Source: a virus
Direction: 5' to 3' (one strand)
Virus record (IMG/VR): IMGVR_UViG_3300025030_000050
Location: 49,350 to 113,349 of that record
DNA: 64,000 nucleotides
This document shows positions 18,515-45,214 of the stretch, one piece after another (position 1 is the stretch's first letter; each line of letters opens with the position of its first letter). The notes beneath the pieces are model-generated. The model did no database searches. It was not told the DNA's origin and saw only the letters and a list, made by a program, of their open reading frames with translations. Position numbers and translations under genes: made by a program.

Positions 18515-19306
18515 TTATAGGTTATTCAAAAACTCTTCAATTTCTTTATCTGTTTTATTTTGTTTCTTCAAAAGATAAAGACACTTATTTCTTTTTAATA
18601 GTTTATCAACATTTAAGCTTTTAACTGTTGATTCATGTGCTTGATGTAAAGTCAGTAGATCATCTCTTAAGATAAATCCTATCCCACTTTTTTCTACATC
18701 GTCCCTAAAGGCATCATCATCATAAGCATAGCCCTTACTAAATCTTTCATCAAATCCACCCATCTTTAAATAATTTTCTTTTGATAAACAACTACAAAAA
18801 TGATATCTCGCATTCCTAAATTTTGTATGTTGATACCAAGAATGATGTTCGTATTTAAAACTATCAAAGGAATCAGAGAATAATTTAAATTTGTGGATAT
18901 TCTCACAACCGCATACTATATAAGAATTTGGTTGATTGTCAAAGATCTTGTCAAACCCGGCCAGAATATTTTCTTTATGAAAAACTTCTGGATTTGTTAT
19001 GCAAATATATTCACCGCTCGCTTTAGAAACACCTAAATTAAATAATGGAGCGGGGTTATGATTATTGATAAAATTAGATTCTACCAACTTGATATCAATA
19101 TACTTATCGGCATTTTTAGTAAAAAACTTTAATATTTCTTTTAATTTATGGTGTTCTTTACCATCCTCTCTGTTTTTAACATCTTCAACAATTATTACTT
19201 CATAATCATCTCTATTTTTATAATGATGATAGTAAGACAACAATGTATTATGCAGCCATCCAGCCCTTTTTATATACGGGAATACTATTGAATATTTTTT
19301 ACTCAT
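18515..19306 (-). CDS. GT2/GT7C-like glycosyltransferase
   Basis: SIVFPY, EVIIVED, NLGV...GEYI, GGFDERF...YDDD, HQAH. Confidence 0.88.
   Translation of the reverse strand: MSKKYSIVFPYIKRAGWLHNTLLSYYHHYKNRDDYEVIIVEDVKNREDGKEHHKLKEILKFFTKNADKYIDIKLVESNFINNHNPAPLFNLGVSKASGEYICITNPEVFHKENILAGFDKIFDNQPNSYIVCGCENIHKFKLFSDSFDSFKYEHHSWYQHTKFRNARYHFCSCLSKENYLKMGGFDERFSKGYAYDDDAFRDDVEKSGIGFILRDDLLTLHQAHESTVKSLNVDKLLKRNKCLYLLKKQNKTDKEIEEFLNNL
19104..19131 (-). promoter_or_regulatory. sigma28/FliA-type promoter, intragenic
   Basis: TAAAGTTT-N12-GCCGATAA. Confidence 0.8.
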
Positions 19307-20123
19307 TAATACCAGCCATTAATTTTAGAAGAAAATTGTCAAAGGTTTCAATATTTTCTTGTGTTACAATATTTTCGTATTCACTAGTTTTTTCAGCACC
19401 AGCAAACCAATGAATACCAACCGTATTCTCAAATAAATTAGAGTGCTTGCCAAAAATTAATTCAATTTGTCTCCAGTCAAATGGATAGACAGTTGTAAAT
19501 GGAATATTATCAATTTTACATTCATGTTTTTCTGAAAAATCTTCAGTATTTTTTTTGTTATATTTAAAAAAAGAAGTAAATAAATCTCTCCCAATTGTTT
19601 GATATTGCAAATTATCTATTTTATTTATAGAGTTTACACACATATCAAACAATTGTTTAAAAAATTTATTATCCCCAGCACTTGCCAAAAATCCAATATT
19701 ATGACAATTATAGTGATAACAAATTAGAGTATCTTTATTTTCAAATTTATTAAAAATTTTATCTACAGAAGAAGTATAAAAAATATCAAAGTCTGACCAC
19801 AAGCCCCCAACAGATGAAAGCAAACTCAATCTTAATAAATCCGACTTATGAACTTCAGATATTTCTTTGGCTAATTTAAAATCAGTTTCAACCAAAGACA
19901 CATTTTTTATATTAGCCAAATCATCAAAATAGTCCTTCCCTACAGGGCAATATTTTTTTTGTTCAAACCCATCCCATTTAATTTCTTTATTAATATTTTT
20001 AGGATAGTAAACAAAAATTTGCCAATCCGGGTTTAATTTAGAAAAAGAAACAACTGTCAAATATTTCATATAAGACAATGGTTTATTTTTACCCCAATAT
20101 AGATGAATTTTCTTAGGTATCAT
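19299..20123 (-). CDS. GT32/OCH1-like DxD glycosyltransferase
   Basis: MIPKKIHLYW, KSDLLR, GGLWSDFD, YPFDW, GIHWF. Confidence 0.9.
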   Translation of the reverse strand: MIPKKIHLYWGKNKPLSYMKYLTVVSFSKLNPDWQIFVYYPKNINKEIKWDGFEQKKYCPVGKDYFDDLANIKNVSLVETDFKLAKEISEVHKSDLLRLSLLSSVGGLWSDFDIFYTSSVDKIFNKFENKDTLICYHYNCHNIGFLASAGDNKFFKQLFDMCVNSINKIDNLQYQTIGRDLFTSFFKYNKKNTEDFSEKHECKIDNIPFTTVYPFDWRQIELIFGKHSNLFENTVGIHWFAGAEKTSEYENIVTQENIETFDNFLLKLMAGINE

Positions 20124-20668
20124 TTATTCTCCCAAATCGCATACGTATTTTTGTCAATATTATCTGTAGATGTTTTAAACCCAAATTTTTTAAATACTCT
20201 ATCTGGTATAAAACATTTGTGCTCTTGATATTTGTTTATTCCAGTGCCTTTCCAATCTGAATCTGGAGAGTTCTCCATCCATTCAAATATATTATTTTTC
20301 TGACCCAACCAATTGATGTTAATATTGTCAAAGAAATGAGATGGTGTATAAATAATAACCTTTTTTCTAGCCATTCTTTTCATCTTTTTTATAAGATTAT
20401 AAGCTTCTTTAAAATCAAGATGCTCTAATATATCTAAGGCAATTACAACATCAATTGTGTTTATTCCAAATTCATATTTTGTTATATCGGCACAAATAGC
20501 ATTTACGCCCAGCAACTTAATTTTATTTATATAAGGCTCATATATATCAAATCCAACAAAAGATTTACACCTTAACCCCATAACCTCTTGCAATACCCCG
20601 CATCCAAGGCTTGAAACAGAATCGTTTCCAGTTATTTCTTTTTGAACTAAATCACCTAGCCAATTCAT
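20120..20668 (-). CDS. Class I SAM-dependent methyltransferase
   Basis: SLGCG, GFDI, DVVIALDILEHL, IIYTP. Confidence 0.88.
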   Translation of the reverse strand: MNWLGDLVQKEITGNDSVSSLGCGVLQEVMGLRCKSFVGFDIYEPYINKIKLLGVNAICADITKYEFGINTIDVVIALDILEHLDFKEAYNLIKKMKRMARKKVIIYTPSHFFDNININWLGQKNNIFEWMENSPDSDWKGTGINKYQEHKCFIPDRVFKKFGFKTSTDNIDKNTYAIWENK

Positions 20669-20676
20669 AGTAAGCC

Positions 20677-21738
20677 TTAAATAAAATTAATATGTTTTGG
20701 TTTATCTTTGATACAATAATTTATGAATTCATTTTTAGCTTTATAAAGACAAGGATTTTTACATCTCAGATCAGGATTATGAGATTTAAACATATTGATC
20801 TTGTCATCACTCATCCACAAATCTTTGAACGATTGATTTTTTATAGAACCAATCTTCCCTTTTTTATTATACGCAAGTGTACAGCAAGTATAGACATTAT
20901 AATCAGCCCCTACATAAGCAAGTAAATCTTTTGTAGGACAAAAATTATAGTCTTGAACTCCCTCAAACATGTCTTTCATTCTATCATTAAAAAGATTAAA
21001 AACAGTAAAATTATCATCAGATAGTTCTTGAGCTTTTTTAGCCAACTCAAAAGAATCTTCATATATGCCATCAAAATAAGAATAGCCATCTGGGGTAAAA
21101 GCAGCAGATATTCTAAAATTATCTACTCCAATTTCTTTAAATAATTTTGCTGCATCAAATATTTCTTTGTAATTATATTTGTTAACAACAAATCCTGCTC
21201 CTATAACACTATCTTTTTTGTATTTAACTAAATTTTTAATATTTTCAATAGTCCTGAAAAACATCTTTTTATTTACTTTTCTAAAAGATGAATATGTTTC
21301 TGGTGTAGCACAATCAACTGATATTCTAACCCAAGCTGAATCGCTTAAAATCTTACACAATTCATCATCTAACGCCATGCCATTTGAAACTAGAGCTAGT
21401 TCTAGTTTTCTATCTAATATATCTCTGAATATATTTTTAATTTTTGGGTGGACAAGAGGCTCTCCTCCTCCGGTTATTTGAATAGCTCTTACCCCCATAT
21501 CAACACAAGAATCTAACGTTTCAACAATTTTTTCATAAGAAAGTAAGTCTTTATCATTAAATATTTCATTTGATTTATTCCCCTTCAAGCGATACGCACA
21601 TGTTAAACAAGAATTGTTACACTTATTTGACGGAATAATCTGGACTTGCAATGGATTTGGTTGTTCTCCATCTTTAAACTGAATTAATTTGTCAAAGCTA
21701 TGAATAATTTTGTATGGTGAATATTCCTCTTTAATCAT
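20677..21738 (-). CDS. Radical SAM enzyme with SPASM/twitch domain
   Basis: CNNSCLTC, TGGGEPL, SNG, RISVD; C-terminal C...YTCC...IGS...W...C. Confidence 0.93.
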   Translation of the reverse strand: MIKEEYSPYKIIHSFDKLIQFKDGEQPNPLQVQIIPSNKCNNSCLTCAYRLKGNKSNEIFNDKDLLSYEKIVETLDSCVDMGVRAIQITGGGEPLVHPKIKNIFRDILDRKLELALVSNGMALDDELCKILSDSAWVRISVDCATPETYSSFRKVNKKMFFRTIENIKNLVKYKKDSVIGAGFVVNKYNYKEIFDAAKLFKEIGVDNFRISAAFTPDGYSYFDGIYEDSFELAKKAQELSDDNFTVFNLFNDRMKDMFEGVQDYNFCPTKDLLAYVGADYNVYTCCTLAYNKKGKIGSIKNQSFKDLWMSDDKINMFKSHNPDLRCKNPCLYKAKNEFINYCIKDKPKHINFI

Positions 21739-22364
21739 TTTTCTCCCCTATTCCAAATTGCCGAAAACTCTTTATCTACTTCAACTGTCCCCAAATGTTT
21801 ATTTGTACAACTCGTATCTATAAATATTTTATAGCCAGCTTGTTTAACTAAATTACAAAAATAAACGTCTTCACCAATATCGAATTGAATGTTAGGATCT
21901 GGATTTTTCATAAAAGAAAAATAAGGCTTTTTAATTTTGTTGAAAACATCCATATTAACTAATAAACATGCTGCGCCAACACTATCTACTTCAATTAACT
22001 CATTCTCTGGGACATTATCTATCGTTTTATAATTGTTTATCATACCATTAAAAGCACAGACTGAATATGGTGTAGTCCTCATAAAAGACAACCCAGATAC
22101 AATAGGTAAGTTGTGTGAAAGTAACTTAATTATTGTATCTGGGTTATGTCGATGGTCTACATCAAGAAAAAGTATGTGCGTACAGTTGTATTTTTGTGCG
22201 GCGTCAACTAATTGATTTCTCATTGATGCCAGTCCTTGATAACCACCAGCTCTAAAAAATACGTGATTATCAGGCTTGCGCATAGCCATGAACGATTCAA
22301 AAAATTCAACTGGTACTGTATTGTGTGTTAATGGCACTCCTATAGCTAATTTTACGTCTTTCAT
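21735..22364 (-). CDS. GT-A fold (GT2-like) glycosyltransferase, paralogue 2
   Basis: RNQLV, THILFLDVD, GAACLL, GEDVYFC, KHLG. Confidence 0.88.
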   Translation of the reverse strand: MKDVKLAIGVPLTHNTVPVEFFESFMAMRKPDNHVFFRAGGYQGLASMRNQLVDAAQKYNCTHILFLDVDHRHNPDTIIKLLSHNLPIVSGLSFMRTTPYSVCAFNGMINNYKTIDNVPENELIEVDSVGAACLLVNMDVFNKIKKPYFSFMKNPDPNIQFDIGEDVYFCNLVKQAGYKIFIDTSCTNKHLGTVEVDKEFSAIWNRGEK

Positions 22365-22395
22365 TTTTCTCCCGATAATGAATGTTTTATTTTTC

Positions 22396-22422
22396 TTATC
22401 GGAAAATTATAAAAAGACTTTA
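22396..22422 (-). promoter_or_regulatory. sigma28/FliA-type promoter heading the glycosyltransferase cassette
   Basis: TAAAGTCT-N11-TCCGATAA, 31 bp before the ATG. Confidence 0.75.
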
Positions 22423-22839
22423 ACTTTTTTGAATAACAACGTTAAATTCGATTGAGTAAACCCAAGATTCATCTTCTTCTATCCAAAACGGGCCAAATAT
22501 ATTCTTTAACCCCATTCTATGACTATTATATCCTGTTATAGATAATTTATAATTATTAAACTGAGTAATTAAATAGCCTAAAATCGTACCTGCTTCAGAA
22601 GAAGAATTTATTGTATTAGAATGAATATTAAATTGGCAAGTGATGTCATCAATCGCTTGTGTCTGATCAGAAACTGAATTAAAAAAACAGTCATAAGAAT
22701 GGTTAAATAAAAAATATCTAACAAATGGAAAGACTGGAACTTGTGGGGCCTTTACAAAATATAACCTGCTACCTATAGATGTATTAAAATTACTAGAAGC
22801 CGTTCCCCTTGAATAAATTGCAGTAGAAATAGAATTCAT
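22420..22839 (-). CDS. Tail terminator / tail completion protein (DUF3168-like)
   Basis: AIY...RLY...APQ...FPFV...QFNI pattern and position. Confidence 0.8.
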   Translation of the reverse strand: MNSISTAIYSRGTASSNFNTSIGSRLYFVKAPQVPVFPFVRYFLFNHSYDCFFNSVSDQTQAIDDITCQFNIHSNTINSSSEAGTILGYLITQFNNYKLSITGYNSHRMGLKNIFGPFWIEEDESWVYSIEFNVVIQKS

Positions 22840-23620: not shown

Positions 23621-23622
23621 TA

Positions 23623-24780
23623 CTATACCTTGCGTTTTTTATATCTTTCAAGAATCATTTTAGCTTCTTTTGGAAAATCTCCAGCTTCAAAAACAGATAA
23701 AACAGAATTATTACCAACCCTATATTGAGTTAGGCCAAACCCATCTTCATTCCTTCTATTGTAAAAATACTTCACCAATATTTTTACCGCCAGTTGCAAA
23801 TTTTTCGGCATATTGTCAGCAGAATACCCAGCAGTATAATCAACATAGATATTTCTAAAACCTTCTGGCCATCCACCAAATTTCCGAATTTGAGCTTTAT
23901 CTAAATCAACATAAAAACTATCTTCATGATCGTCTGTTTTATATAAATCAACCCAATTACTGTCTATCACATTTAGCCCATACACAGGAATCAATTCTGT
24001 GGACTTAACGCTACCGTAGACAGACGAAAGAATTTCTGCTTCCCATCCATTGCCTAAGGCGTTAATCGCGGCTACAACAGCCGTTACAGTAGTATTAGAG
24101 GCAAATGTAACAGAAGTATCGGCAGTACCATCTAAAACAAGTCTTAACCCAGTTGTAGTAACAGAGACAGTTGCTGTTGATGTTGAGTTAGTGTTTCTGA
24201 CTTTCATTACTCCAATTATCCATACCGCAACTCTATCTACTGCTGTTATGGGATAATTGTTTAAATTAATTATAGAACCGCCGCTACTATCGTACCTTTC
24301 CAATCTATAACTTGTTTCTTCAAATACGCGTCTACAATAATCAGAAACAAGTCCTTCAACATCTTCTCTGATTATATCAACTATCAGAGTTGGATCTCCG
24401 GCTTCAATATCTGAGACTATAGTTTGAGCCGCACTTTTATTGCTATCAAGTCCAAGTGTAAGTCCGGCGTCAGAACTTGTATGAGTATAAGCAATTGTCT
24501 TGCCCGTTCCAGCATTTATAGTAAAAAGTCTTGTTGTAGAAGAATATGATACAGCAAATGTTATTACACCTGTGCCGGTCAAAGTAGTGTTTGCGTTCAT
24601 TTGAGTCTGAAGATGAGAGGCTAGCCCAGATCCATCATATGTACCATCACTCAAATCTATATTTACTGGACCACCACTAGAACTAGTAAGATTAAGAGTG
24701 TTATTCGCTTTAGTTATTGTAAAATATCCTTTATCAATATCTAAAAATGTAAGACAATCATCTAAACTTACAATGGCCAT
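23623..24780 (-). CDS. Head-tail connector (gp6/gp15-like) with two inserted beta-rich domains
   Basis: IVSLDD..FL, YCRR.F, YPITAV, VDYTAGY, P..LQLAV...YNRR core split by Thr/Ser/Gly-rich inserts. Confidence 0.8.
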   Translation of the reverse strand: MAIVSLDDCLTFLDIDKGYFTITKANNTLNLTSSSGGPVNIDLSDGTYDGSGLASHLQTQMNANTTLTGTGVITFAVSYSSTTRLFTINAGTGKTIAYTHTSSDAGLTLGLDSNKSAAQTIVSDIEAGDPTLIVDIIREDVEGLVSDYCRRVFEETSYRLERYDSSGGSIINLNNYPITAVDRVAVWIIGVMKVRNTNSTSTATVSVTTTGLRLVLDGTADTSVTFASNTTVTAVVAAINALGNGWEAEILSSVYGSVKSTELIPVYGLNVIDSNWVDLYKTDDHEDSFYVDLDKAQIRKFGGWPEGFRNIYVDYTAGYSADNMPKNLQLAVKILVKYFYNRRNEDGFGLTQYRVGNNSVLSVFEAGDFPKEAKMILERYKKRKV

Positions 24781-25107: not shown

Positions 25108-25128
25108 TTAAATCTCTCCCGTCTAAAG

Positions 25129-25521
25129 TTATGGCGAAACTGAAATCGTGACTTTCTTTTCAGGGTTAACGTAGAAATTGATTGGCTTAATGATACGGTC
25201 ATGAGCCACCCATTTTACCTCAGTTGAATAATCACTTTCGTAACCATAGACATCATAAGCTGTGGCGGCGAAATAATAGGTTGTTCCAACAACAAGATCC
25301 CCTACTGAGCCCTCAACATGACCATCCACCATTGTGCCCATTTTCTGGTCAACATCTAAAGTGTATTTTTTTGACGCTGTGCCATAGTAGATCTTATACC
25401 CGGCAAGGCTGGTCTCTGCATTTGGAGACCAAGAGAACCTTGCCTCGGCAGCAAAAGCATAACTGGATAAGAATAAAACAAAAATAGTCGCAAAACAAAT
25501 TTTCTTTAACATAATTTTCAC
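25129..25521 (-). CDS. Secreted fibronectin type III domain protein
   Basis: Signal peptide ending AFA; W.PN.E..LAGYKIYYG, GTTYYFAATAYD..G.ES.YS. Confidence 0.88.
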   Translation of the reverse strand: MKIMLKKICFATIFVLFLSSYAFAAEARFSWSPNAETSLAGYKIYYGTASKKYTLDVDQKMGTMVDGHVEGSVGDLVVGTTYYFAATAYDVYGYESDYSTEVKWVAHDRIIKPINFYVNPEKKVTISVSP

Positions 25522-26138
25522 CTTGGATTAAATCTCTCCCAATATGTTTGATCTATTTCAATTGTACCTAAATGTTTGTTATCACAACCGGTATCACAAT
25601 ATATTTTATATCCAGCCTGTTTAGCCTTTAAACAAAATGCAAAATCTTCACTTACAACACCGTCGCCAAACCTATAATTCATTTCGAACCAAGGATAATT
25701 AATTTCTTTAAAAACACTGACATCAACCAATAATGAAGCAGCTCCAATAGCATCTACTTCAATTAATTCATTTTTATTCCATTGTATTATATTCTTGAAT
25801 TTATCACCATCTTGTTCGAATATAATTGGGTCATATGGATAAGAACGCCTAAAAGATAAACCAGATACAATATCTTTATCATGTGACAATAATTTAAGGA
25901 TGGTATCGGAATGATGTCTATGATCTGTATCAAGGAACAATATATGGCTAAATGTCCCATCTTTAAGAACGGCATGAATTATTGAATTTCGTTGATCGTC
26001 TACTCTTCCCCTATTCCCAATTATTACACTATGTTGGGGTTTCTTCAACTCTATCCATGATTCAAAAAATTTGGTCGATAAAAAATCCCAGTTGCAAGGA
26101 AGACCAATGGCGATGTTAATATTACCCATTACAAACAC
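25518..26138 (-). CDS. GT-A fold (GT2-like) glycosyltransferase, paralogue 1 (likely start 26129)
   Basis: SHILFLDTD, GAASLL, SEDFAFC, KHLG. Confidence 0.88.
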   Translation of the reverse strand: MFVMGNINIAIGLPCNWDFLSTKFFESWIELKKPQHSVIIGNRGRVDDQRNSIIHAVLKDGTFSHILFLDTDHRHHSDTILKLLSHDKDIVSGLSFRRSYPYDPIIFEQDGDKFKNIIQWNKNELIEVDAIGAASLLVDVSVFKEINYPWFEMNYRFGDGVVSEDFAFCLKAKQAGYKIYCDTGCDNKHLGTIEIDQTYWERFNPR

Positions 26139-26875
26139 CAGCTAATTGCTAGTTCCGGGAAGTTTAATTTATGAGGCAATCCTTCTCTTATAATAAATTT
26201 ATCTCTTGCTAATGCTGCATCTTTAGCAGTTTTAAATGTTGTTTTGTTAAATACTGTCTTCCCATCATTTCTTACAATTGCAGAAAAAGATTTTCTCTCC
26301 GGTTTATAAGACACCCCACAATATCCAGAAGTGTTATTCGACTGTAATAATCTTTTATTAAATCCATTCTCTCTTATAGTTATAAATCTACAATTCCAAG
26401 GAGCATAAGGACCATCATTATCGATTCGATCTAATTGAAGACCTTCTTCCCATCCATTATTTAAACACCAATCATTAAACACGGGGAATTCAAACACCCA
26501 TTCACTACATACATAAATTCCACGCCCACCATAACTGTCATACGATCCATTATTCACATTTGAACATCTACTATTGATATGTTTCCAAAGTGAATAAATT
26601 TTATTCCTTGATTTTCTTCCACCCATCCCATGAATTGTGGATCTCTCTACTAATTTCTCTATTTTAAGACAGCCGCAAGATTGTGATTTCCCACTCCTCA
26701 AAACTTGTAAATTAACTAATTTAATTGTCTCTTTATCACATAAACATTTTACAACGACTAGCCTACCTTGCCTCTGACTATATGGCAAATCAGCATAAAT
26801 TACAACCCATCTTCCATAAACGCATCCCAAAACATATTCTTTTACATTATTACTCATAGTATTCCTCCTATACAA
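26129..26875 (-). CDS. HNH homing endonuclease with AP2-like C-terminus (likely start 26857)
   Basis: SQSCGC, YGGRGI.VC.EW, LDRIDNDGPY.P.NCR, NTSGY.GV, AA.ARD. Confidence 0.92.
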   Translation of the reverse strand: MYRRNTMSNNVKEYVLGCVYGRWVVIYADLPYSQRQGRLVVVKCLCDKETIKLVNLQVLRSGKSQSCGCLKIEKLVERSTIHGMGGRKSRNKIYSLWKHINSRCSNVNNGSYDSYGGRGIYVCSEWVFEFPVFNDWCLNNGWEEGLQLDRIDNDGPYAPWNCRFITIRENGFNKRLLQSNNTSGYCGVSYKPERKSFSAIVRNDGKTVFNKTTFKTAKDAALARDKFIIREGLPHKLNFPELAISWCL

Positions 26876-33946: not shown

Positions 33947-35803
33947 TTATTTAAACCTTACCGAACCTGCGCCTTCTTTAGACCTTACCGAACCAACAGA
34001 CTCAGTTGATGCCACAATGCTGAAACTCGCTTCCGTGCTTGTTGCGTTTGCGTTGCCAGAACCATCAATACACCTGATGTAATAAGTGTATGCCGCGTTG
34101 CAATCCAGGTTTACGAGGCTTGTGGTGTGTGTAGTTCCCCCGCCACCTGAGAAAGTAAAATCCATATCGGCGTAGGCTTCATCGGTAAGGCTTCCTTTGC
34201 AGGTGGCAGACTCATCTGTTGTCGCGCCAAGCACTTTGGTTGTTGGGTCCGAGGGGCAGGATAGTTCTCCGGTAAGCGTAACGCCAGAGATAACCGGCGG
34301 GTCAAGGTGTGTGATGGTGATAACCGGGCTCGCAACGATGGCTGCAGATCCGGTGAGGATTGAGGCCGGGATTGTTGCTGTTATCGTCTCATCTGCTGAG
34401 ACGTCATAAGCATCTACTTTTACAATTAGAGTTATCTGCGTATCACTGTTACGGATGCAGTCAGCGTACGTCCAGTTTGCTTCATCATCCCAACTGCCTG
34501 CCCCAGACAATGAGCCGTTGAAACCAGCCAGTAATGCGGTAGTGGCTGCGTTATCAGCACAAGCCGTCGCAATAAAGGTGTCGCCATCCAACGTGATGAT
34601 TATTGTCTGGTCATCTCCGGCAAGCTCTGTTTCAGTTACTCCGCCTGTTACGGCTGTGCCTGTGAGTGTTGCGTTTACCCCTAACATGGCAAAATATGTA
34701 GGCCCTATACGACTGCCATCAATAATAAAATCATCGACATAGTAGGCCATATCCAAGGCTTCCGAAATTTCTCTGATAAGAAACGAATGGTTGCCACCAA
34801 AGAAAAACTTATTATAATTGTAGTCCTGGCCTGCCTCAACTACAACTCCGTCTGTTTTTGTAAATATTTTTGTAACATTCCCTTCAGCATCGTACAACCA
34901 CATTTCAGAGACAGCATCGGCATTCCCTGCCGTTCCTGTGGTTTGATGGAATTCTATCCCAAACCACTGCTCATTGCCGATAGCTGTCCCCAAAAACGGC
35001 TTAATGCTATACGCAGTGCCTCCACCGTCTACGGCATCATATGCCTCGTACAGCAGGTCATTATTCCAGTCTGCATCATAAGCCGAATCGAGACGGAGGC
35101 CTGGTTTGAAAAATAACTCATACCCGTAGGTTGCTCCTGTTTTTATGTCCGGCAAATAATGTGATTGCCCATAAACCTGGCCTTGCCCATCTGCCTGAGC
35201 GTATTCGTCATATATTGAACTGGCTGAGTATGCCCCAGCCACAAGAGTGTTAAATTTGTAATAACTCCAATACCCGGTGAAATTTCCGCTTTCATCCCTG
35301 TAAGGGAAATGGTTGTAGGGCATCTTCACCATATAGAAAATATAAATGTCATCATAACCAGAATCTATGGTCCCTGATGTTGCATACCCATCACCAAGCG
35401 TGAAGTACAAGCCGAACCTGGAAGGTCCTTTGTGGTCAACCGTGCCTTGTTGGGATAGATCAAGCCGTAACGACTTACCTGTGCCCTGCCAAACATTTGC
35501 TGCCCCATGATTTGCAATCCAATCATAGGTGCTATCGGTGCTTGACTGGTAATAATACATGTTCCAGATTGAAGCTGAATTATCTGCTGATTTAGTTGGC
35601 AAATTATTAAAATAATACCCAACTCCTGTTGATGTTCCACTCCAGTCATTAAGCTGGTCGAAAGTCTCTACAATATCAAAACCGGCACCTTCAAGATCTG
35701 ACTGCCAATCAGCCACAGCCTGGACCGGCAAGGCCAATATGATGAAAAGCAAAAACTTAATAGCCACTTGCATTATACACCTTCCCGTTGTCAATATATC
35801 CAT
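33947..35803 (-). CDS. Secreted acidic multi-domain protein: lectin/lyase-like beta-sandwich plus Ig/FN3-like C-terminus (likely start 35773)
   Basis: Signal peptide MQVAIKFLLFIILALPVQAVA; W..IE.H...G..D....W and Y.DDFII pattern; YTYYIRCID..GN. Confidence 0.7.
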   Translation of the reverse strand: MDILTTGRCIMQVAIKFLLFIILALPVQAVADWQSDLEGAGFDIVETFDQLNDWSGTSTGVGYYFNNLPTKSADNSASIWNMYYYQSSTDSTYDWIANHGAANVWQGTGKSLRLDLSQQGTVDHKGPSRFGLYFTLGDGYATSGTIDSGYDDIYIFYMVKMPYNHFPYRDESGNFTGYWSYYKFNTLVAGAYSASSIYDEYAQADGQGQVYGQSHYLPDIKTGATYGYELFFKPGLRLDSAYDADWNNDLLYEAYDAVDGGGTAYSIKPFLGTAIGNEQWFGIEFHQTTGTAGNADAVSEMWLYDAEGNVTKIFTKTDGVVVEAGQDYNYNKFFFGGNHSFLIREISEALDMAYYVDDFIIDGSRIGPTYFAMLGVNATLTGTAVTGGVTETELAGDDQTIIITLDGDTFIATACADNAATTALLAGFNGSLSGAGSWDDEANWTYADCIRNSDTQITLIVKVDAYDVSADETITATIPASILTGSAAIVASPVITITHLDPPVISGVTLTGELSCPSDPTTKVLGATTDESATCKGSLTDEAYADMDFTFSGGGGTTHTTSLVNLDCNAAYTYYIRCIDGSGNANATSTEASFSIVASTESVGSVRSKEGAGSVRFK

Positions 35804-36527
35804 CAGAGGTTAAAACTGTAGCGCTAGCCCCGCCCCATGCAAACACGGTGTTAGAACCAGTAGACGCGGCAGGGTCGTTGTCTGCTTCCGCAGTAACACA
35901 GTTGGTTGTGCCGTCAGCGTCACAAGTTTTTACATACATGTCATTTCCTGCCGCCGTCTCTTCTATCCACCCAGCTTCAAAATAAAACCACTCGCCTTCC
36001 GCACGGCCACTGCTGGCAGGGATGTTTACTGTATCCGCTGTACCGCCCCCGGTATGTGTGAGCAAAAGAAGGATATCAGCGGCATCACCTAGCGATGCAA
36101 AAGACAAAAATACCCGGTTTGATGTATCCAAAACGTTGTACCATATGTACTGCGCATCAGCATACATCCCAGTGCCAACATAACACCTGCCAGAAATTTT
36201 CCCGTCTGAAACAAGATCAGTTGCAGTTGTAAACTCGGCCCTGGAGCTTGCCCCATCACCATGGATTGCTGATGCGCCGTCATAGAATTGATCGGTCGTT
36301 CTTGCTGCGCCACTCTGATAAGTGGGAGATGTATCTTCCGTCGAGCACCCGGCAGGAGTTCCGGTTGTTACGTCATCCGTCTCCATGTGCCAGGAGTGGA
36401 TCAGTGTCCCGGTACAGGAGTCTCCGGCAGTGGCAGTCTCATTTACATTGTTTTCCCCGCCCGGACCCCAGGCAAAGGCCTGAAACGGTGCGAGAAGAAG
36501 TGCAAGAAATAAAAACCGCTTTATCAT
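35757..36527 (-). CDS. Secreted LamG/concanavalin-like protein
   Basis: Signal peptide ending AFA; GEWFYFEAGW, GYIDN.KVY. Confidence 0.7.
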   Translation of the reverse strand: MIKRFLFLALLLAPFQAFAWGPGGENNVNETATAGDSCTGTLIHSWHMETDDVTTGTPAGCSTEDTSPTYQSGAARTTDQFYDGASAIHGDGASSRAEFTTATDLVSDGKISGRCYVGTGMYADAQYIWYNVLDTSNRVFLSFASLGDAADILLLLTHTGGGTADTVNIPASSGRAEGEWFYFEAGWIEETAAGNDMYVKTCDADGTTNCVTAEADNDPAASTGSNTVFAWGGASATVLTSDGYIDNGKVYNASGY

Positions 36528-37543
36528 GAAGCACCCCCATCAACCCAGGTTCCGCTGCGGCCATTGGTATTGGCCTTCGTGGTTGACCGGTTGTGGATGC
36601 AGATAAAATTCCCAGCTGCTCCGGGGCTGTCAAGTTCGTACCCAGCTCCGGCAAGAGCGGCACCATCCAGGTAAATTGTCATGCCGTCAGATTGAGGGTC
36701 AATCTTCACAACATTGGCACCGTCAGAATAGACACACCCTGAATAGTCAGCGATCGCCGGCCAGAGTATTGTTGTGGCCGCATTGATGTACCACCACGAT
36801 CCAGACTGAAGAGGACCGGGGGCAAGCTTCCATACGTCCCCATCGTCCCAGTTATTATCGGTTCCACCTGTCAAAGTACCGACCAAAGTCGTGCCTGCAT
36901 TATCTATAACCGGCGCGACTGACCCATCGGTTACGTTGTAAACCGTCATGCCTATGCAGCCGTCAACCGGCAGTGACTCGCTGGAATCGGTCATAAAAGC
37001 AGCATCGGCACCACCATCATGCACGCCCTCGGTGGTGGTCAAAGAAAAGCTTTTCGTATGGCCGTTGATTGTTCCGCTGCTTTCGACGACCATGTCATTA
37101 GAAAAAGAGACTGCGACATTTGAAAGATCCAGTGTTGCAAGTGCCTCAATCCAGCCCTGCACCTTCGTCGCCATGTAAGTTGCAAAGTCAGTCAGGGCAA
37201 CCTGCACCATCGTGCCGTTGTCGTTTACTACGGCCCGGTCAGCATCGACAAGCGTGGTGGCTGTTGCGGCTGTATCGCCATCAGATGTGGCTGTAAGCTC
37301 GGTTGCGGACGGTGTCATGTTGGTTATCCCAGACACGGTTAATGCAAACGGCGCATATACATCCTCGCCGATCAATGCCTGAATCTCTGCCGAGGTGTCC
37401 ACGGTTGGATCTTGCTCTGTTGCCGCGTTCGTGCCGCCCTTATTGGCGTCCTGATAGCCGTTGTTGTCAGCGTCAAGCTCAACCGCTAAGGCTTTCCAGG
37501 GAATCAGCAGAACAAGTGCCGCTATCAATAGAATTTTATTCAT
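36524..37543 (-). CDS. Secreted fibre-like acidic protein
   Basis: Signal peptide ending ALA; DGDT.AT.TTL.DADR.VVNDNGTMVQVA.TD segment resembling phage fibre proteins. Confidence 0.7.
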   Translation of the reverse strand: MNKILLIAALVLLIPWKALAVELDADNNGYQDANKGGTNAATEQDPTVDTSAEIQALIGEDVYAPFALTVSGITNMTPSATELTATSDGDTAATATTLVDADRAVVNDNGTMVQVALTDFATYMATKVQGWIEALATLDLSNVAVSFSNDMVVESSGTINGHTKSFSLTTTEGVHDGGADAAFMTDSSESLPVDGCIGMTVYNVTDGSVAPVIDNAGTTLVGTLTGGTDNNWDDGDVWKLAPGPLQSGSWWYINAATTILWPAIADYSGCVYSDGANVVKIDPQSDGMTIYLDGAALAGAGYELDSPGAAGNFICIHNRSTTKANTNGRSGTWVDGGAS

Positions 37544-37554
37544 TTGTCATCTCC

Positions 37555-39192
37555 TTACCATGTAGCGGTTTCACCGCCGAAAGTTGCTGATTCACCACCA
37601 AAAGTTACTAGCTCGATATGCAATCTACCCCCACCCAACGAATAACTGTCAGGTGTCCCCAGAAACCACAGGGGCGGCGGCATTGTCATGCCTTTGCACA
37701 ACTCGTATGCGCCGATTGGCTCGCCAGACCCGCAATAGATATTGTCGTGGGCGGTGCCGGCGTCAAAGAGCGATTTGAGGCGGGGACGGCCTTGAGTGTC
37801 GAGGAGGGGATTGTCGGTTAAGTCGGTGGCGTCGAGCGTTATGTCATTGTCAGGTGCATTGTAAACAAGGTTGTCGTGCTCCACAGCGACAGATCCCGCG
37901 CTTGTTTCAAACCCTTTGCTTGTCGGGCTGTCACAGAGGTTATTAATCCACGTAGTGGTATTGCCTATGTTGTCACCGTCAGCTTGACTAAAGCAAACAT
38001 TTGGGGAAATAACAGTGTTGCCAATCCATCGATTCCCACTACTCTCGTTGCTAGCGTTCCTCAACCCCATGCCGCTTGAACCACTTACGAGATTATGCTC
38101 TACAAGGTTTCCAGTTCCTTTGAAAATGCTTATGCCCCGCCCCCCGCAAGCCGCGTTGGTGTTTTTAATAATATTTCTGGCGACATAATTGCCTGTTGAC
38201 AACAGTGTGTCATCGGTGTTCGACCAATCCAAGATAATGCCACATCCGTCGCAACTTGCCGTGTCAACACTATCAATCCTGTTATCGATTACGTCAACCT
38301 CGTTAATCCAATGGAGCTGAAGGCAATTTACCATTGGGTAGTCCGAGTCACCACATTGTCCTACATGATTATCCTCTATTGTGCTGGCTAAAGTTGCACC
38401 GTTGATGCCACCAGGAAGACCCATAAACGGTCCCCGTGTGTGGTCAACATCATTCCTCGCAACAGTCAATCCTTCGACTCTATGCCCTCCGCTCCAGACA
38501 TCTGCGTCAGCGGTGCCGAATATGAAATTTTTGAGGTAGTCGCCAATGTTATCGGTAATGGAGATATTATACGGGTGTTTCGCATTTGCTCCCGCCTGCG
38601 CCATCCTGATCCCTTCCATTGTCCCATTGCTGCGAAAATCATTGTGGTGAAAATTTATGTTGTAGGAATCAGCGGTTGACGTGTAGATATCAAGGCATGT
38701 CTGGGATGTGTCCGAATCGCAAATAATATTCTTCACTTCAACATCATGTTGCCCGAAAAAGTACACTATGCGCCCGAGAGCGGCGCCGCCCGCAAACGTC
38801 AGAGTGCCGAGGCCGTCAATTTGATAGCACCCTCTACCAGCTACCCCAAAAAGAAATCCTTGCGTTGCGGAGTAAGACAAAACCGGTGCATCCCCAAAAG
38901 CTGGCGCAAAATAATACAGCGCATCCGATGTGCCGGTGGCCCTGACGATAAGCTGCCCGTCAATGGGGCCAGCATCGTCGCAAAAGTAAATTGTATCACC
39001 CGGGGTCATATCCGCGGCGTCTGTTCCCCAGTTATCTTGCGCGGAAAACCAAGACTCATCATGGGCAGTAGCACAACTTGTACCTGAATCATCGCCTTGA
39101 GTTGCCCCAGCAATGTAGACGCCCTTCGCCCCCGCCACGGACGGCATGGCCAACATGAGGGACAGAAGCAGGGCTAGAATTTTCTTGATCAT
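37555..39192 (-). CDS. Secreted right-handed beta-helix (pectate-lyase-like) protein
   Basis: Signal peptide ending AGA; G.SCATA, PGDTIY, Asn-ladder repeats, D.G...C......IGAYE. Confidence 0.8.
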   Translation of the reverse strand: MIKKILALLLSLMLAMPSVAGAKGVYIAGATQGDDSGTSCATAHDESWFSAQDNWGTDAADMTPGDTIYFCDDAGPIDGQLIVRATGTSDALYYFAPAFGDAPVLSYSATQGFLFGVAGRGCYQIDGLGTLTFAGGAALGRIVYFFGQHDVEVKNIICDSDTSQTCLDIYTSTADSYNINFHHNDFRSNGTMEGIRMAQAGANAKHPYNISITDNIGDYLKNFIFGTADADVWSGGHRVEGLTVARNDVDHTRGPFMGLPGGINGATLASTIEDNHVGQCGDSDYPMVNCLQLHWINEVDVIDNRIDSVDTASCDGCGIILDWSNTDDTLLSTGNYVARNIIKNTNAACGGRGISIFKGTGNLVEHNLVSGSSGMGLRNASNESSGNRWIGNTVISPNVCFSQADGDNIGNTTTWINNLCDSPTSKGFETSAGSVAVEHDNLVYNAPDNDITLDATDLTDNPLLDTQGRPRLKSLFDAGTAHDNIYCGSGEPIGAYELCKGMTMPPPLWFLGTPDSYSLGGGRLHIELVTFGGESATFGGETATW

Positions 39193-39995: not shown

Positions 39996-41372
39996 TTAAT
40001 TTTGCAGAACAGCTAATTTTTTAGGATTATCAATTATATTTCCAGCGCCAGTACCTTGAGCTATATTAGATAAAACGCCATCCATAGTTGTCATGTTGAC
40101 CGCAATTAATGGTTCATCAAATCTTTTATCAAATTTTTCCTTACCCAATCCTGTTCTAACTTCATTAATTGATTCAATTCCTGTTTGAACATGTTTAATT
40201 CTTTCATTTAACAATTCTTCTCTTGAGTCAGGAACGCAATTATCATATGCTAGAAACAATTTTTCATCATATCGCCAAATCAATTTTTCATTTAACTTTT
40301 CTTCAATTCTTCTCAATCTCGGTTGGATTGTAAAACTCATATATTGATATATAGCAGCGTCTACATTCGCTCTGTTCGCTTCTTTACTATACATACCTAG
40401 TGCTTGTCCAAAAGCGTTTAAAATCAACTCTCTTATCTTTTCTCTGCCACCAAGATAAGACATTTCTTTAGGCGAAGTTCCAACTGGTTTAAATTTTAAA
40501 CCACTATCAAGTAATGGCATTTTCCCCGCATTTTTAGGGCCAGTAAACGCTTGTTTAATTTCAGCCTTTAATCTTTCAAATTCATGATCTCCTAGTTCAC
40601 TATCTGTTTCAAATGTCCCTGACAATGTTCCTTGATTTTTGAACATTGCTTCTTCATATTCATTTATAGAATGGTTTAATGAATATTCTTCAGTAATAGA
40701 AGAAAAAGGAGGGAACCCATAATAAACAGATTTTGGATTTGGCATTTTAAAATGAATCACAGCTTTTTCTTTTAAATCTATAGACTGTGTTCCTTTTTGA
40801 TATTGATAACCAGAAATAAAACTTTTACTATCTGGAACAACTTTACAATTTTGTGGCGGAATAATCCAAATTTCTTTTGGGATACCCATTCTGTCTTCAA
40901 GAATATGCCAGAATGTATTTCCAGTAAGTTCCTGATACAACTGCGTCATTTGCATCAGGTCAAAATTATTCATGAAATTGTTTACATTTTTTTTCAAATC
41001 AAGAAATGGATGATCAAGAACTTCTTCAAATTCGCTAGCTTTTCTAACAGAAGTTATATTTGATAGAAATGGATTTTCCCTAATAAAAGCGTCTTGAGAT
41101 TTTGAAATATTTCTCGTAGGAAAATTTTTTATTTTTTGGCCTTTCTTATTTTTTGCCACATAAAGTCTAAGAGGAATATTTGCTACACTATCAGCATTTT
41201 TAGAACTTGCAATATATACCCAAGACTTATAAGAATTCACCATCGCATTAAAATCATCTTCTGGGTACAACTCTCTGCCATATTGCCATGGGTAAAGCCA
41301 TGGCAATGACGTTCTTTTTCTTCCAACTCTAGCAGCTCTCATTTCAATTTCATATTTAAAAGGGTCTATCAT
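39996..41372 (-). CDS. Portal protein, HK97 family
   Basis: WVY...A..P, HP, GN.FW, IHFK.PNP...YG, G..NAGK..L..G, INEVR..LG. Confidence 0.96.
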   Translation of the reverse strand: MIDPFKYEIEMRAARVGRKRTSLPWLYPWQYGRELYPEDDFNAMVNSYKSWVYIASSKNADSVANIPLRLYVAKNKKGQKIKNFPTRNISKSQDAFIRENPFLSNITSVRKASEFEEVLDHPFLDLKKNVNNFMNNFDLMQMTQLYQELTGNTFWHILEDRMGIPKEIWIIPPQNCKVVPDSKSFISGYQYQKGTQSIDLKEKAVIHFKMPNPKSVYYGFPPFSSITEEYSLNHSINEYEEAMFKNQGTLSGTFETDSELGDHEFERLKAEIKQAFTGPKNAGKMPLLDSGLKFKPVGTSPKEMSYLGGREKIRELILNAFGQALGMYSKEANRANVDAAIYQYMSFTIQPRLRRIEEKLNEKLIWRYDEKLFLAYDNCVPDSREELLNERIKHVQTGIESINEVRTGLGKEKFDKRFDEPLIAVNMTTMDGVLSNIAQGTGAGNIIDNPKKLAVLQN

Positions 41373-41707
41373 TATTTATTTCCTTGAGAAGCTTCAAGAT
41401 AAACTTTATACCTATTTTTAAAAAAGTCTTCATGAAAATATTTTTCAATAAACTCTTTTTTTTCTGTATCAAAATATTCTGTAATAATATACAATTTATT
41501 TTCTTCTGGTTCTAATTCTCTTAAAATAAAATCTGGTGATGAGGAATAGTCTTTAATATAAAATTCTATCCCATCATGAATTAATAAAAGACCTTTTGGA
41601 AATATTTCTTCTAATTTTGCAGAAAAAAAATAATAATTTTGAGCCAAATTTTTTGTTGCAAATATATAAAAAATATTGTAAAGTAGTTTAAAAATATTTT
41701 TTATCAT
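41372..41707 (-). CDS. Hypothetical protein
   Basis: Coupled between terL and portal. Confidence 0.6.
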   Translation of the reverse strand: MIKNIFKLLYNIFYIFATKNLAQNYYFFSAKLEEIFPKGLLLIHDGIEFYIKDYSSSPDFILRELEPEENKLYIITEYFDTEKKEFIEKYFHEDFFKNRYKVYLEASQGNK

Positions 41708-43452
41708 ATTACTCTTATATGAGGAATCGCAGGCTCAAAGAAACATTGCATTAAAGAAGCAAACTTGTCTGGGCTTCTCCCAATCTTCTTTTTAATTGTT
41801 TTCTTATCACTTACTTTAATTTTACCACTACTTTGGTCTTCGTAATATTCAAACGCGAGCATCTCTTCCCTTAAATCATTATCATCCGGAATCATAGCTG
41901 AAGGATCTTTCTTAAGCCAGTCAGCTATGGTCCAGGCCAACTCATCTCTTATTAAATGAAACTTACCCAATTCACATTTTTTTTGACTTGGTGAACTTAC
42001 ATAAACTTTTCTGGCATTAATATGGCATCTTGCCATTTCTTTATGACAAACAGGGCACTTATAAATACTTTCATCAAGATAAGTTGTTTTATAATGAGAG
42101 CATTCATTATTTTCACACCTCCAATACCACATTCTACCAACTCTCGGAGGTATTGCAGCCCCAATCCCGTCAGCTTCTACATTAGCCTGATCTGCATCCA
42201 AACTTACATAAATTTTACTAAGTCTATCTGATGATTTATCTAAATCAACACCCTTCCAACTTTCAAATCCATCTATATAATTACCATATCTTTTAGCAAC
42301 ACAACAATTATCTCCACCCTCATCAGCAACGTCCATTCCTAGTAATGGCTTAATCCCTTTTATTACATCCTTCCCGTATGTTGCCCGATAAAGTTTCCAT
42401 CTACTTACAGCATTATCTATATCCACCATACTTATTAGAGAACTTTCTGTACAAGATGGGTACTCCCCTAAAACCTTATAGGAAAAAGCAGGATTTGTTA
42501 CAACCCTCCATCCACCCTTTAAAGGTGGATAGAATTCATTATTTCCTGAAGGTTTTTCACCAGTAACCCCAATTAAAAATTCAGGAACTTCAAAACAAGA
42601 TTTATCAACCTCTTCATCATCCCTTAACTCTCTTGACCAGCTATTAATCCTTTCAACAACTTTATCTCTACTTACTGCTCCTGGAATTAAATTTTTGCCA
42701 CTCACTACATTTGGGTGATTAAATGCAGACATTGTGATTACATTTGCTTTGCCTTTAGTCAATTCATAGACATACCCAGATTGACGTTTTGGGTTATACA
42801 TATTTAATTGCCTACTGCCATCACCTGAAAGACACCCATCCTCGCCTTTAAAAACCTCATCTGGGATAGCATCACTTTCATCATTTTCATAAAAAAGATA
42901 ATCTGCATGCTGCCCACTAAATTTAGCTTCTCTTTCCTCAGCAGAACCAGTGGATGGAATTGTTTTTCCAGTTATAAAATGTTTTCCACTACTTTCTCCG
43001 TAATCATCTTCTTTGCTATTTAAATTAATGTCATCTGTTATTTTTAAATTTAAAATTCTATCACTTTTAAATAATTTTCTATTTTTAACAACAATCTCTA
43101 CTATCTCACTCCAAAGTTTTTCCTTTAAATTATTTTCAGGAGGAGCAGCAACGGCAATTGTTTGTGATTTTGGGAAACAGCGATAATGCCAAATAGCAAG
43201 AGCTGCGGCACAAAAGGTTTTTCCAGTTCCGGTCGCTGATTTAACAACTGTGACTTTATTGTCTCTAACAGATTCAGCAATTTTAATTAAATCATCAGGA
43301 ATTATTTTTATTTTTAAAATTTCTCTAAAAAAAACAACTGGATCTTTTTGATATTTCGTATAATCTATATCATCCAGCAAGACCGATTTTATTTCATCTT
43401 CATTAAAAAGATTAGCAAGCAAATCTAAAGCTTTTTCATCTATGCCCATCAT
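41704..43452 (-). CDS. terL: Terminase large subunit
   Basis: SATGTGKT, SGQH, DESDAI, NP, GMDVA..G.D, D..GIGA, K..IKKKIGRSPD. Confidence 0.95.
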   Translation of the reverse strand: MMGIDEKALDLLANLFNEDEIKSVLLDDIDYTKYQKDPVVFFREILKIKIIPDDLIKIAESVRDNKVTVVKSATGTGKTFCAAALAIWHYRCFPKSQTIAVAAPPENNLKEKLWSEIVEIVVKNRKLFKSDRILNLKITDDINLNSKEDDYGESSGKHFITGKTIPSTGSAEEREAKFSGQHADYLFYENDESDAIPDEVFKGEDGCLSGDGSRQLNMYNPKRQSGYVYELTKGKANVITMSAFNHPNVVSGKNLIPGAVSRDKVVERINSWSRELRDDEEVDKSCFEVPEFLIGVTGEKPSGNNEFYPPLKGGWRVVTNPAFSYKVLGEYPSCTESSLISMVDIDNAVSRWKLYRATYGKDVIKGIKPLLGMDVADEGGDNCCVAKRYGNYIDGFESWKGVDLDKSSDRLSKIYVSLDADQANVEADGIGAAIPPRVGRMWYWRCENNECSHYKTTYLDESIYKCPVCHKEMARCHINARKVYVSSPSQKKCELGKFHLIRDELAWTIADWLKKDPSAMIPDDNDLREEMLAFEYYEDQSSGKIKVSDKKTIKKKIGRSPDKFASLMQCFFEPAIPHIRVI

Positions 43453-44147
43453 TTATTCCCAATACGACGAGCCAAACCTACTTTAATCGAATCTTGAACT
43501 TCTTTAGGAAACATCGAAATCAAAGTTTTTAAATCAACAGGGATTTTTCTATCATTGTCTTGTTCAAACATCCCCAAGTGTTTTGCCAAGGCATCGAGCG
43601 CACTTTTTTTATCAACTGTTTTTAGTTCTTTGATATACGATTCTAATTTCTCATTGCCGTCTTTATCTTTAACAGTTTTAACACCAATACTTAGTCCGGA
43701 TATAACAGCAGCGGTATCTCTATCCATTTCAGATAAATTTTTTAAACTATTGTCTTCGTTATATAAATCCTTTACATTGGAGTAAGCAAGTTTGGCATAT
43801 TCTGTTAAAACACGTTCTTGAGTTATTTGCAGTTTTACACTAATCTGTTTTTGAAGTCTTTCAATTTCTCTTCTTACTTTTGGATTTGAAAGGAGTCTTG
43901 AACCAGCAGCTCCAGCATTCCATAATGAATAACCCGCTTTTTGAGCGGCTTTTTCTTCGTTATACCAAATTACATATTCTTGACAAAATCTTGAAACACG
44001 AAAAGGAAGGTCTTCACCTTCCTCAATTGTTTCTAACGAATGAACTTCATTGACTAATTCATTATAATCGTCGACAGAGTAATCTTCGGTTTTAATTCTC
44101 TCCATTTGTTGATTTAAATTATCTTGTTTTAATATTTTTTTATCCAT
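43449..44147 (-). CDS. terS: Terminase small subunit
   Basis: FCQEY...N...AA.KAGYS...A...GSRLL, IT.ERVL.E...A, DK..ALDALAKHLGMF. Confidence 0.95.
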   Translation of the reverse strand: MDKKILKQDNLNQQMERIKTEDYSVDDYNELVNEVHSLETIEEGEDLPFRVSRFCQEYVIWYNEEKAAQKAGYSLWNAGAAGSRLLSNPKVRREIERLQKQISVKLQITQERVLTEYAKLAYSNVKDLYNEDNSLKNLSEMDRDTAAVISGLSIGVKTVKDKDGNEKLESYIKELKTVDKKSALDALAKHLGMFEQDNDRKIPVDLKTLISMFPKEVQDSIKVGLARRIGNK

Positions 44148-44153: not shown

Positions 44154-44230
44154 TGGGGTGAAGTGTGAGAATCGAACTCACTAGAACCTGATTCACAGTC
44201 AGGAGGATCAACCGTTTTCCTTACTCCACC
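44154..44230 (-). tRNA. trnH: tRNA-His (GUG) with G-1:C73 pair and encoded CCA
   Basis: Acceptor GGTGGAGT/ACTTCACC, anticodon arm CCTGA-CTGTGAA-TCAGG, T arm GTGAG-TTCGATT-CTCAC. Confidence 0.92.
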
Positions 44231-44427: not shown

Positions 44428-44458
44428 ATCAATTCCAATTCATTCTAAGTTTATTTAC

Positions 44459-44486
44459 TTATCGGCATAAGTTAGCAAAAACTTTA
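44459..44486 (-). promoter_or_regulatory. sigma28/FliA-type promoter upstream of tRNA-His and terminases
   Basis: TAAAGTTT-N12-GCCGATAA, intergenic. Confidence 0.82.
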
Positions 44487-44492
44487 ATATTT

Positions 44493-44915: not shown

Positions 44916-45117
44916 CTCCTAAATTAATCTGGCATTCTTTTATGTCAAGGATTTCTATATTGTCAAGAAATCTACATTTTTTAATATTATTCTCTTTGTC
45001 CAAAACAATGTATGGACAAATTTTAACAACTGCTGTTTTATTTTCAAACTGGCATTTTATAATTTGGTAACAATAAAATCCCTCAGGTATTAATTCAACT
45101 GGCATTTGTTGGTTCAT
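44908..45117 (-). CDS. Small Cys-containing phage protein
   Basis: IPEGFYCY...CPY...C.FL...IKEC.IN. Confidence 0.7.
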   Translation of the reverse strand: MNQQMPVELIPEGFYCYQIIKCQFENKTAVVKICPYIVLDKENNIKKCRFLDNIEILDIKECQINLGVV

Positions 45118-45131
45118 ATATAACTCCCATA

Positions 45132-45160
45132 AATATAATCATTGCAAATAACGTTGTCAA
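45132..45160 (-). promoter_or_regulatory. sigma70-type leftward promoter
   Basis: TTGACA-17 bp-TATATT. Confidence 0.6.
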
Positions 45161-45187
45161 GTACTAGATCCAATTTGCTATAACAAC

Positions 45188-45214
45188 TTATCGGAATATT
45201 TTTATCAAACTTTA
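45188..45214 (-). promoter_or_regulatory. sigma28/FliA-type promoter at the start of the leftward region
   Basis: TAAAGTTT-N11-TCCGATAA, intergenic. Confidence 0.78.

Follow-up and report, generated by a model that had tools for sequence, protein, structure and literature searches.

Phages time the expression of their genes by drawing on the primary sigma factor of the host, on sigma factors or RNA polymerases of their own, on activators, and on antiterminators, and their middle and late promoters are served either by phage sigma factors (gp55 of T4; gp28 and gp33/34 of SPO1) or by a host RNA polymerase that has been redirected to them (by AsiA and MotA of T4). The promoters of the bacterial flagellar sigma factor, sigma-28, have the published consensus TAAAGTTT-n11-GCCGATAA (PMC2859248), and in the attack-phase FliA regulon of Bdellovibrio bacteriovorus, the motif TTAAG-N16-CCGATA was found in 92 of 140 attack-phase promoters (PMC3627812). 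Here, we consider an element in a virus that resembles these. A stretch of 64,000 nucleotides (nt) of phage DNA, which we call the window—bases 49350-113349 of the 113,349-bp IMG/VR record IMGVR_UViG_3300025030_000050, or G000—carries five copies of a two-part motif among its virion genes. What is this element, and who reads it? From its consensus, orientation, position, and conservation, we conclude that the copies are very probably sigma-28 (FliA/SigD)-class promoters, and we put at roughly 0.6 the probability that they are read by the core RNA polymerase of the host carrying the flagellar sigma factor of the host (FliA).

The argument starts with the motif itself. The pattern TTAAAGTYT-N11/12-(K)CCGATAAG has exactly five matches in the window, all of them on the minus strand, just as an earlier note on this DNA had reported (its coordinates hold to within 1-2 nt), and it has none at all in 100 dinucleotide-preserving shuffles. 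Even the octamer CCGATAAG by itself occurs 7 times in the window against an expectation of 0.87. A search with the capsid protein led to related viral contigs at 72-79% identity to G000—a sister phage of 144.5 kb (G001; IMGVR_UViG_3300014205_000181), a contig of 81 kb (G002), and one of 8 kb (G003)—and 28 sites from these four related phages were used to derive a position-weight matrix. Run across the whole 113-kb record, the matrix finds six sites at 30-41 bits with nothing scored in between; on 30 random sequences of the same composition, its best score is 18.4 bits and its mean 9.8. The element is real, discrete, and all-or-none.

Over the 28 sites, the consensus reads nTA-TTAAAGTTTtt ... 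AT(g)CCGATAAGgta. In the left half, TTAAAG is invariant (28 of 28), with GTTT next in most sites and GTCT in one site of G000, and this half agrees with the -35 element TAAAGTTT and its core TAAA. In the right half, CCGATAAG is equally invariant (28 of 28), with a G before it in about two thirds of the sites, and this half agrees with the -10 element GCCGATAA and its core CGATAA. The spacer is free in sequence and fixed in length, N12 at 20 of the 28 sites and N11 at the remaining 8. That is, most of the phage sites match both octamers of the sigma-28 consensus in full, at the canonical spacing or with one base extra, and the identification of a FliA consensus in the earlier note is borne out for both half-sites. 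Transcription would be expected to start ~7-8 nt past CCGATAA. We found no other repeated upstream motif besides this element, and promoters of the Bacteroidota type (TTG...TAnnTTTG) showed no enrichment upstream of genes.

The relatives bear on both the conservation and the direction of the element. A relaxed form of it, TAAAGT-N14/15-CCGATA, matches 13 times in G001, 7 times in G002, and once in G003, and not once when the pattern is reversed; it has no match in a complete relative that is further removed (40% capsid identity). Around the five sites of the late block, gene order is the same in G000, G001, and G002. As for strand bias, for which the earlier note had suggested a check, 26 of 28 sites share their direction with the coding sequence downstream (p = 3e-6, over four phages that are related to one another). 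Twenty of the 28 are intergenic, compared with ~24% noncoding DNA by crude gene calls, and these intergenic sites stand 8-130 nt ahead of start codons that have ribosome-binding sites. The sister phage has 14-15 sites to the six of G000, and the extra sites in the relatives precede small XRE-type and winged-helix regulators, a dUTPase-like open reading frame (ORF; read by eye), and a TnpB gene. This last gene, of the IS200/IS605 type (G001 112929-114086), has a full sigma-28-type site 43 nt upstream, and no near-identical copy of it was found in a named genome.

Which genes, then, stand behind the sites of G000? Here, a single leftward block of ~40 kb (window 5447-45117) has rightward genes on both sides, and the five window sites belong to that block and to its strand. 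Promoter 1 (45187-45216, minus strand, as are the next four; ATTAAAGTTT-N11-TCCGATAAG, the 26-nt canonical span, at 33.6 bits) is intergenic and heads the block, with the ATG of an ORF of 69 amino acids 72 nt downstream and an orthologous site in both G001 and G002. Promoter 2 (44458-44488; ATTAAAGTTT-N12-GCCGATAAG, 40.6 bits) is likewise intergenic, with orthologues in the same two phages; 33 nt downstream of it comes an ORF of 62 amino acids, and then, within the operon that this promoter heads, tRNA-His (GTG; 44154-44229), and on through the PHROG-matched stretch at 39996-44147 with the small terminase (43449-44147), the large terminase (41704-43452), an ORF of 111 amino acids, and the portal (39996-41372), all on the minus strand. 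Promoter 3 (29982-30012; the same two halves as promoter 2, also at N12, 39.4 bits) lies inside a gene, in the 3' part of the minus-strand ORF for an 821-amino-acid fusion of a prohead protease with an AAA+ ATPase (29577-32042), where it encodes LKFFIKDADK. The first complete gene 3' of it, for an HK97-type major capsid protein (28223-29503, minus strand; phrog_10, E = 5e-46), has its start codon 481 nt downstream. The motif is at the matching place in G001, G002, and G003, and the protein context differs in the latter two.

Promoter 4 (22395-22424; GTTAAAGTCT-N11-TCCGATAAG, 30.0 bits) is intergenic, with an Anp1-like glycosyltransferase gene 33 nt downstream and radical-SAM and methyltransferase genes after it; its orthologues in G001 and G002 are 8-10 nt upstream of the start codon, which is the spacing of a leaderless transcript and what one would expect if transcription began a few bases past the -10 element. 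Promoter 5 (19103-19133; again the halves of promoter 2 at N12, 39.1 bits) is ~180 nt into a GT2 gene (18515-19306, minus strand), where it encodes LKFFTKNADK, and 604 nt downstream of it begins the next and last glycosyltransferase gene (17845-18501, minus strand), followed by the tail tube gene (17425-17841, minus strand); G001 and G002 have the orthologous intragenic site. The genes that the earlier note had placed behind each of the five sites are, indeed, the genes that follow them. What has to be amended is that promoters 3 and 5 are intragenic and stand at the distances just given from the next start codon.

The sixth site, a full motif at record positions 7725-7751 on the plus strand, falls outside the window and came to light in the scan of the whole record. 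Nineteen nt downstream of it is a gene of 60 codons with an HTH_3 (helix-turn-helix, HTH) domain, followed by the genes for a 493-amino-acid HTH_36 protein, a DnaB-like helicase, a primase, and a DNA polymerase. Because this site stands ahead of replication genes, the regulon is not restricted to late genes, and the idea that the motif marks late genes only (as the earlier note had it) proves too narrow on this count and on that of the relatives, with their sites before HTH regulators, the dUTPase-like ORF, and TnpB. The companion idea, that the early genes have sigma70-type promoters instead, has no statistical backing: counts of the sigma70 consensus equal those in shuffles, which speaks neither for nor against the idea, and a few good candidates exist.

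A skeptic could still point out that two of the five window sites are in coding DNA and that the genome is AT rich, and could hold that the matches arose by chance or as a by-product of coding sequence or composition. The codons themselves speak to this point. Only one frame of the N12 motif avoids a TAA stop, and that frame encodes L-K-F-x4-A-D-K. In seven of seven intragenic occurrences, the codons are identical (TTA AAG TTT ... GCC GAT AAG), and the four codons between them vary. These occurrences are found in three protein contexts, namely, the AAA+ lid (G000 and G001), a protease with no AAA+ domain, in its C-terminal part (G002 and G003), and the GT2 glycosyltransferase. Given the peptide, the probability of that codon set is 2.4e-3 per site (in the usage of the clade, AAG makes up 27% of Lys codons and GCC 16% of Ala codons). 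The same codons in three unrelated protein contexts indicate selection on the DNA: the DNA element dictates the peptide and not the reverse. An origin by chance or composition is refuted by the shuffles (0 matches), by the bimodal scores, by relatives that have kept the sites while the spacers diverged, and by the same peptide imposed on three unrelated contexts, and we give it practically no weight.

We return, then, to the second of our questions. The earlier note saw no sigma factor gene in the window, and we can extend its observation: none was detected in the rest of the record or in related DNA, over searches that covered ~0.5 Mb of clade DNA in all. A six-frame search of G000 with the Pfam models Sigma70_r2, r4, and r4_2 and with TIGR02937 gave nothing significant; Sigma70_r2 and r4 had no match in G001 or G002, and Sigma70_r2 had none in five further related fragments. 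Nor was there a match when FliA and the primary sigma factor from a bacterial metagenome-assembled genome (MAG) were compared by phmmer --max with all ORFs of at least 50 amino acids. One TIGR02937 match, at E = 0.68, was rejected; it falls in the winged-helix domain of the 493-amino-acid HTH_36 protein beside the helicase gene, which is likely a replication initiator. A search for an RNA polymerase of the T7 type gave no match, and the control genomes contain none, so the sensitivity of that search was not shown. A search of G000, G001, and G002 for FlgM homologues was likewise negative. Annotation of the large ORFs covered those for the DNA polymerase (1098 amino acids) and a class II ribonucleotide reductase (638 amino acids); the virion block has further large ORFs of 1651, 926, and 666 amino acids. 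With no sigma factor or RNA polymerase gene detected in the phage, the host core RNA polymerase with the host flagellar sigma factor becomes the most likely reader.

Might the phage, nevertheless, encode a sigma factor of its own that reads these sigma-28-class promoters and that was either unsampled or too divergent for the profiles? Large phages often carry sigma factors, the records are classed as linear and rated by CheckV as 81-86% complete, and most of the sites have N12, one base over the canonical N11, as might be the case with a dedicated reader. We think this unlikely. Regions 2 and 4 gave no signal in G000, G001, and G002, the five fragments were without region 2, and the phmmer comparison was null; a protein that reads all 16 positions of the sigma-28 consensus should, moreover, be recognizable as a FliA homologue. 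Little of G000 seems to be missing, either. Its right end (window 63490-63999) repeats its left end (record 715-2064; the first 1.2 kb) at 89-92% nucleotide identity, including the N terminus of a helicase gene, and because the ends overlap, the record probably wraps round and is near-complete; what is filed as a linear, 81% complete record is probably the wrap-round of a circularly permuted or terminally redundant genome that was assembled from two strain variants. Of the two readers that the earlier note had left side by side, the host sigma-28 is, therefore, the likelier, and a phage sigma factor encoded outside the window is improbable, since none was detected in the profile and phmmer searches.

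The motif is also found well beyond this clade, which again counts against a sigma factor private to these phages. In its strict 17-base form, TTAAAGTTT-N12/13-CCGATAAG, it occurs in more than 100 IMG/VR viral stretches at least. Among the matches listed, ~25 are loci of this clade (for example, the 74.7-kb contig 3300025053_000003), and 56 sites are in loci without protein similarity to the G000 phage, with guanine-plus-cytosine (GC) contents of 27-59%; 41 of these 56 are intergenic. A reader common to many bacteria fits the strict motif in so many unrelated viral contigs better than does a factor private to one phage clade.

There is another way to read the same letters, namely, as the site of a phage DNA-binding protein (a small HTH protein, for example) that serves as an operator or activator beside other promoters or that has some other function on DNA. 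Many of the sites in the relatives are, after all, directly before small XRE-type or winged-helix genes, the sixth site of G000 is before the HTH_3 gene, and at the head of the late block, there is a sigma70-type promoter right beside the motif. This promoter, TTGACA-N17-TATATT (45132-45160, minus strand; 11 of 12 consensus positions), follows the motif of promoter 1 in tandem at a distance of 27 nt, and the first leftward ORF begins 15 nt after it. Three genomes have kept CTTGACAA-N-GATTATAnT at this place, immediately behind the first site: G000, G001 (~23965-23995), and G002 (~35060-35090). From the conservation of TTGACA-N17-TATAnT in three genomes, we infer that canonical primary-sigma promoters are used by these phages. 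The tandem promoters precede three small ORFs (69, 78, and 56 amino acids) that match no known family; these are the first of the leftward genes and may belong among those expressed early.

Such a binding site strikes us as less likely still than a sigma factor of the phage. The half-sites are neither palindromic nor direct repeats and are, to that extent, unlike the operator of a dimer; both of them match the sigma-28 consensus, as does the distance between them to within one base, and their orientation follows the direction of the genes. An HTH gene follows only one of the six G000 sites, a companion sigma70-type promoter was sought and seen at site 1 only, and the motif is common to unrelated phages.

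If host FliA reads the element, then it matters who the host is. The one lead is that G001 is contig 1 of an NCBI MAG labeled Melioribacteraceae, in which an flhF-flhG-fliA cluster and a flagellin gene are present. Flagellin genes are found in 64 of 81 Melioribacteraceae genomes, and Melioribacter roseus is motile by flagella (PMC3534657). At the flagellin loci of the family, 15 of 31 genes have a conserved cTAAAC(T/A)TT ... nCGATAAT ~100 nt upstream of the start and 16 are without it; to judge from the sequences, the phage motif is closer to the general sigma-28 consensus than to these promoters. Counts of the motif in Melioribacteraceae chromosomes are only ~1.5-fold over the reversed-pattern control and do not discriminate. 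A megablast search of a phage collection for cultured relatives gave no match, and protein searches gave distant relatives only (30-36% identity for the capsid, to phages of varied hosts; 33% for the large terminase, to phages of Salinibacter ruber). Searching 401 genomes of the candidate host class with the capsid protein brought up distant matches only, and a test for CRISPR spacers, with a 20-kb DNA query against 151 Melioribacteraceae genomes, gave only short AT-rich noise.

Several points weigh against a host FliA as the reader. The Melioribacteraceae lead is a weak one that rests on binning, and the flagellin promoters of that family have TAAAC and nCGATAAT where the phage has its invariant TAAAG and CCGATAAG; their spacing is almost always canonical, compared with one extra base at 20 of 28 phage sites. 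The two intragenic sites, 480-600 nt before the next start codon, would give an unusually long leader. The linear classification of the records and their estimated completeness of 81-86% leave room for an unsampled sigma gene. Finally, if sigma-28 is already active in the host at infection, then the motif alone would leave the delay of the late genes unexplained.

What would the program of the phage look like if its promoters are, as we prefer to think, read by the host sigma-28 holoenzyme? The remaining, mostly small rightward genes that are free of the motif would presumably be transcribed first, by the primary-sigma holoenzyme. Next, the sigma-28 holoenzyme would transcribe the replication operon, headed by the sixth site, along with the five virion operons. 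The five sites would split the leftward block into small leader genes; tRNA-His, terminases, and portal; capsid and head completion; the glycosyltransferase/radical-SAM cassette; and the last glycosyltransferase with tail tube and tail. The two promoters inside genes, ahead of the capsid gene and of the last glycosyltransferase and tail tube genes, could add transcripts for the proteins that are needed in the highest copy. For a delay or a boost of sigma-28 transcription, the candidates would be an early phage protein that acts on FlgM or on the primary sigma factor—or nothing at all. Middle and late expression would, by this account, be tied to cells in which sigma-28 is active; the link to the motile state that the earlier note drew is conjectural.

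One can push the idea further. Perhaps this is a clade of large lytic phages that have no sigma factor of their own and that run replication and all of virion morphogenesis on the flagellar sigma factor of the host; an early product, made from primary-sigma promoters, might bring core RNA polymerase over to sigma-28 (through the release of sigma-28 from FlgM, for example, or a block on the primary sigma factor), a productive infection might require that the cell be in the motile state, and the unrelated contigs with the motif might be instances of a widespread and unrecognized strategy. We offer this fuller version as a tentative conjecture, one that we would ourselves bet against. If the phage does depend on the host sigma-28, then its productivity would be coupled to the motility of the host and to the flagellar checkpoint, a host could become resistant by losing motility or fliA, and sigma-28 motifs would be a cheap marker by which to predict a flagellated host. 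Full-text searches of the literature turned up no lytic phage reported to need a host alternative sigma factor of the flagellar class for its replication and virion genes.

The rest of the genome may be described briefly. Its GC content is 33%. The head part of the leftward block comprises the small and large terminases, the portal, a GC-rich island, the prohead protease fused to the AAA+ ATPase, the major capsid protein, and a head-tail adaptor; the remainder has several glycosyltransferases, the radical-SAM enzyme, the methyltransferase, the tail tube, and large tail genes. Rightward genes include those for helicases, the DnaB-like helicase, primase, DNA polymerase, a ligase, a single-strand-binding protein, a UvsX-like recombinase, an exonuclease, and the class II ribonucleotide reductase, which groups with viral proteins only. 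The GC-rich island (33947-39192, minus strand), at 47-53% GC, has four large ORFs without a PHROG match, and the homologues of its 545-amino-acid protein carry a beta-helix domain (PF13229) and are found in metagenomes only. There are at least four HNH endonuclease genes across the structural and replication modules (window 26129-26875, 32026-32880, and 46674-47180; record 12421-13299). In the divergent intergenic region just upstream of promoter 1, two adjoining GC-rich hairpins at 45328-45366 (both strands), GTGTTTGC...GCAAACAC and AAGCCAC...GTGGCTT, are followed by a T-rich tail and could be a terminator or an insulator between the rightward and leftward blocks. As for the protease, the fusion to the AAA+ ATPase is present in G000 and G001, and the AAA+ part is absent in G002 (25127-26533) and G003 (3358-5010); the charged C-terminal protease segment 3' of the internal promoter is kept in all four, and in the protease gene of G003, the motif is followed at 29 nt by a start codon that has a ribosome-binding site. 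This segment might be made separately, as a scaffold-like product.

How does all of this compare with what is already known? The nearest likeness is to the class 3 flagellar and chemotaxis promoters that are read by FliA of Escherichia coli and Salmonella and by SigD of Bacillus; the phage elements share with them both octamers, the bipartite form, and a spacer that is fixed in length and free in sequence, and at 8 of 28 sites, this spacer has the same N11. They differ in that the phage elements head virion and replication operons and not motility genes, in that 20 of 28 have N12, and in that the conserved core of the phage element extends further (TTAAAGTTT and AT-n-CCGATAAG, in many cases with GTA after it). 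The phage set is also without degenerate members, whereas the sigma-28 regulons of bacteria are graded.

Bdellovibrio bacteriovorus resembles our phage in a different respect: there, sigma-28 is global for a whole cell state that goes beyond flagella, and the printed span of its motif is compatible with the major spacing class of the phage. That regulon is, however, bacterial and chromosomal, nothing links this 33%-GC phage to predators, and the comparison of spacing, which hinges on how the -35 elements are aligned, is a lead only. With T4 and SPO1, the phage shares the use of a distinct class of promoter, separate from that of the primary sigma factor, to mark its replication and virion genes; it differs from them in that no phage sigma gene was detected and in that the motif equals the consensus of a host alternative sigma factor and is not specific to the phage. 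A mechanism of the T4 MotA type needs a sigma70-type -10 hexamer, and none is conserved within the phage element (across the six G000 sites, what follows CCGATAAG shows no conserved TAnnnT, the hexamer of MotA/AsiA-type promoters). The sister phage G001, in which no sigma gene was found by the region 2 and region 4 profiles, shares the motif with G000, along with the gene order around the five late-block sites, and differs in that many of its sites are before small HTH regulators.

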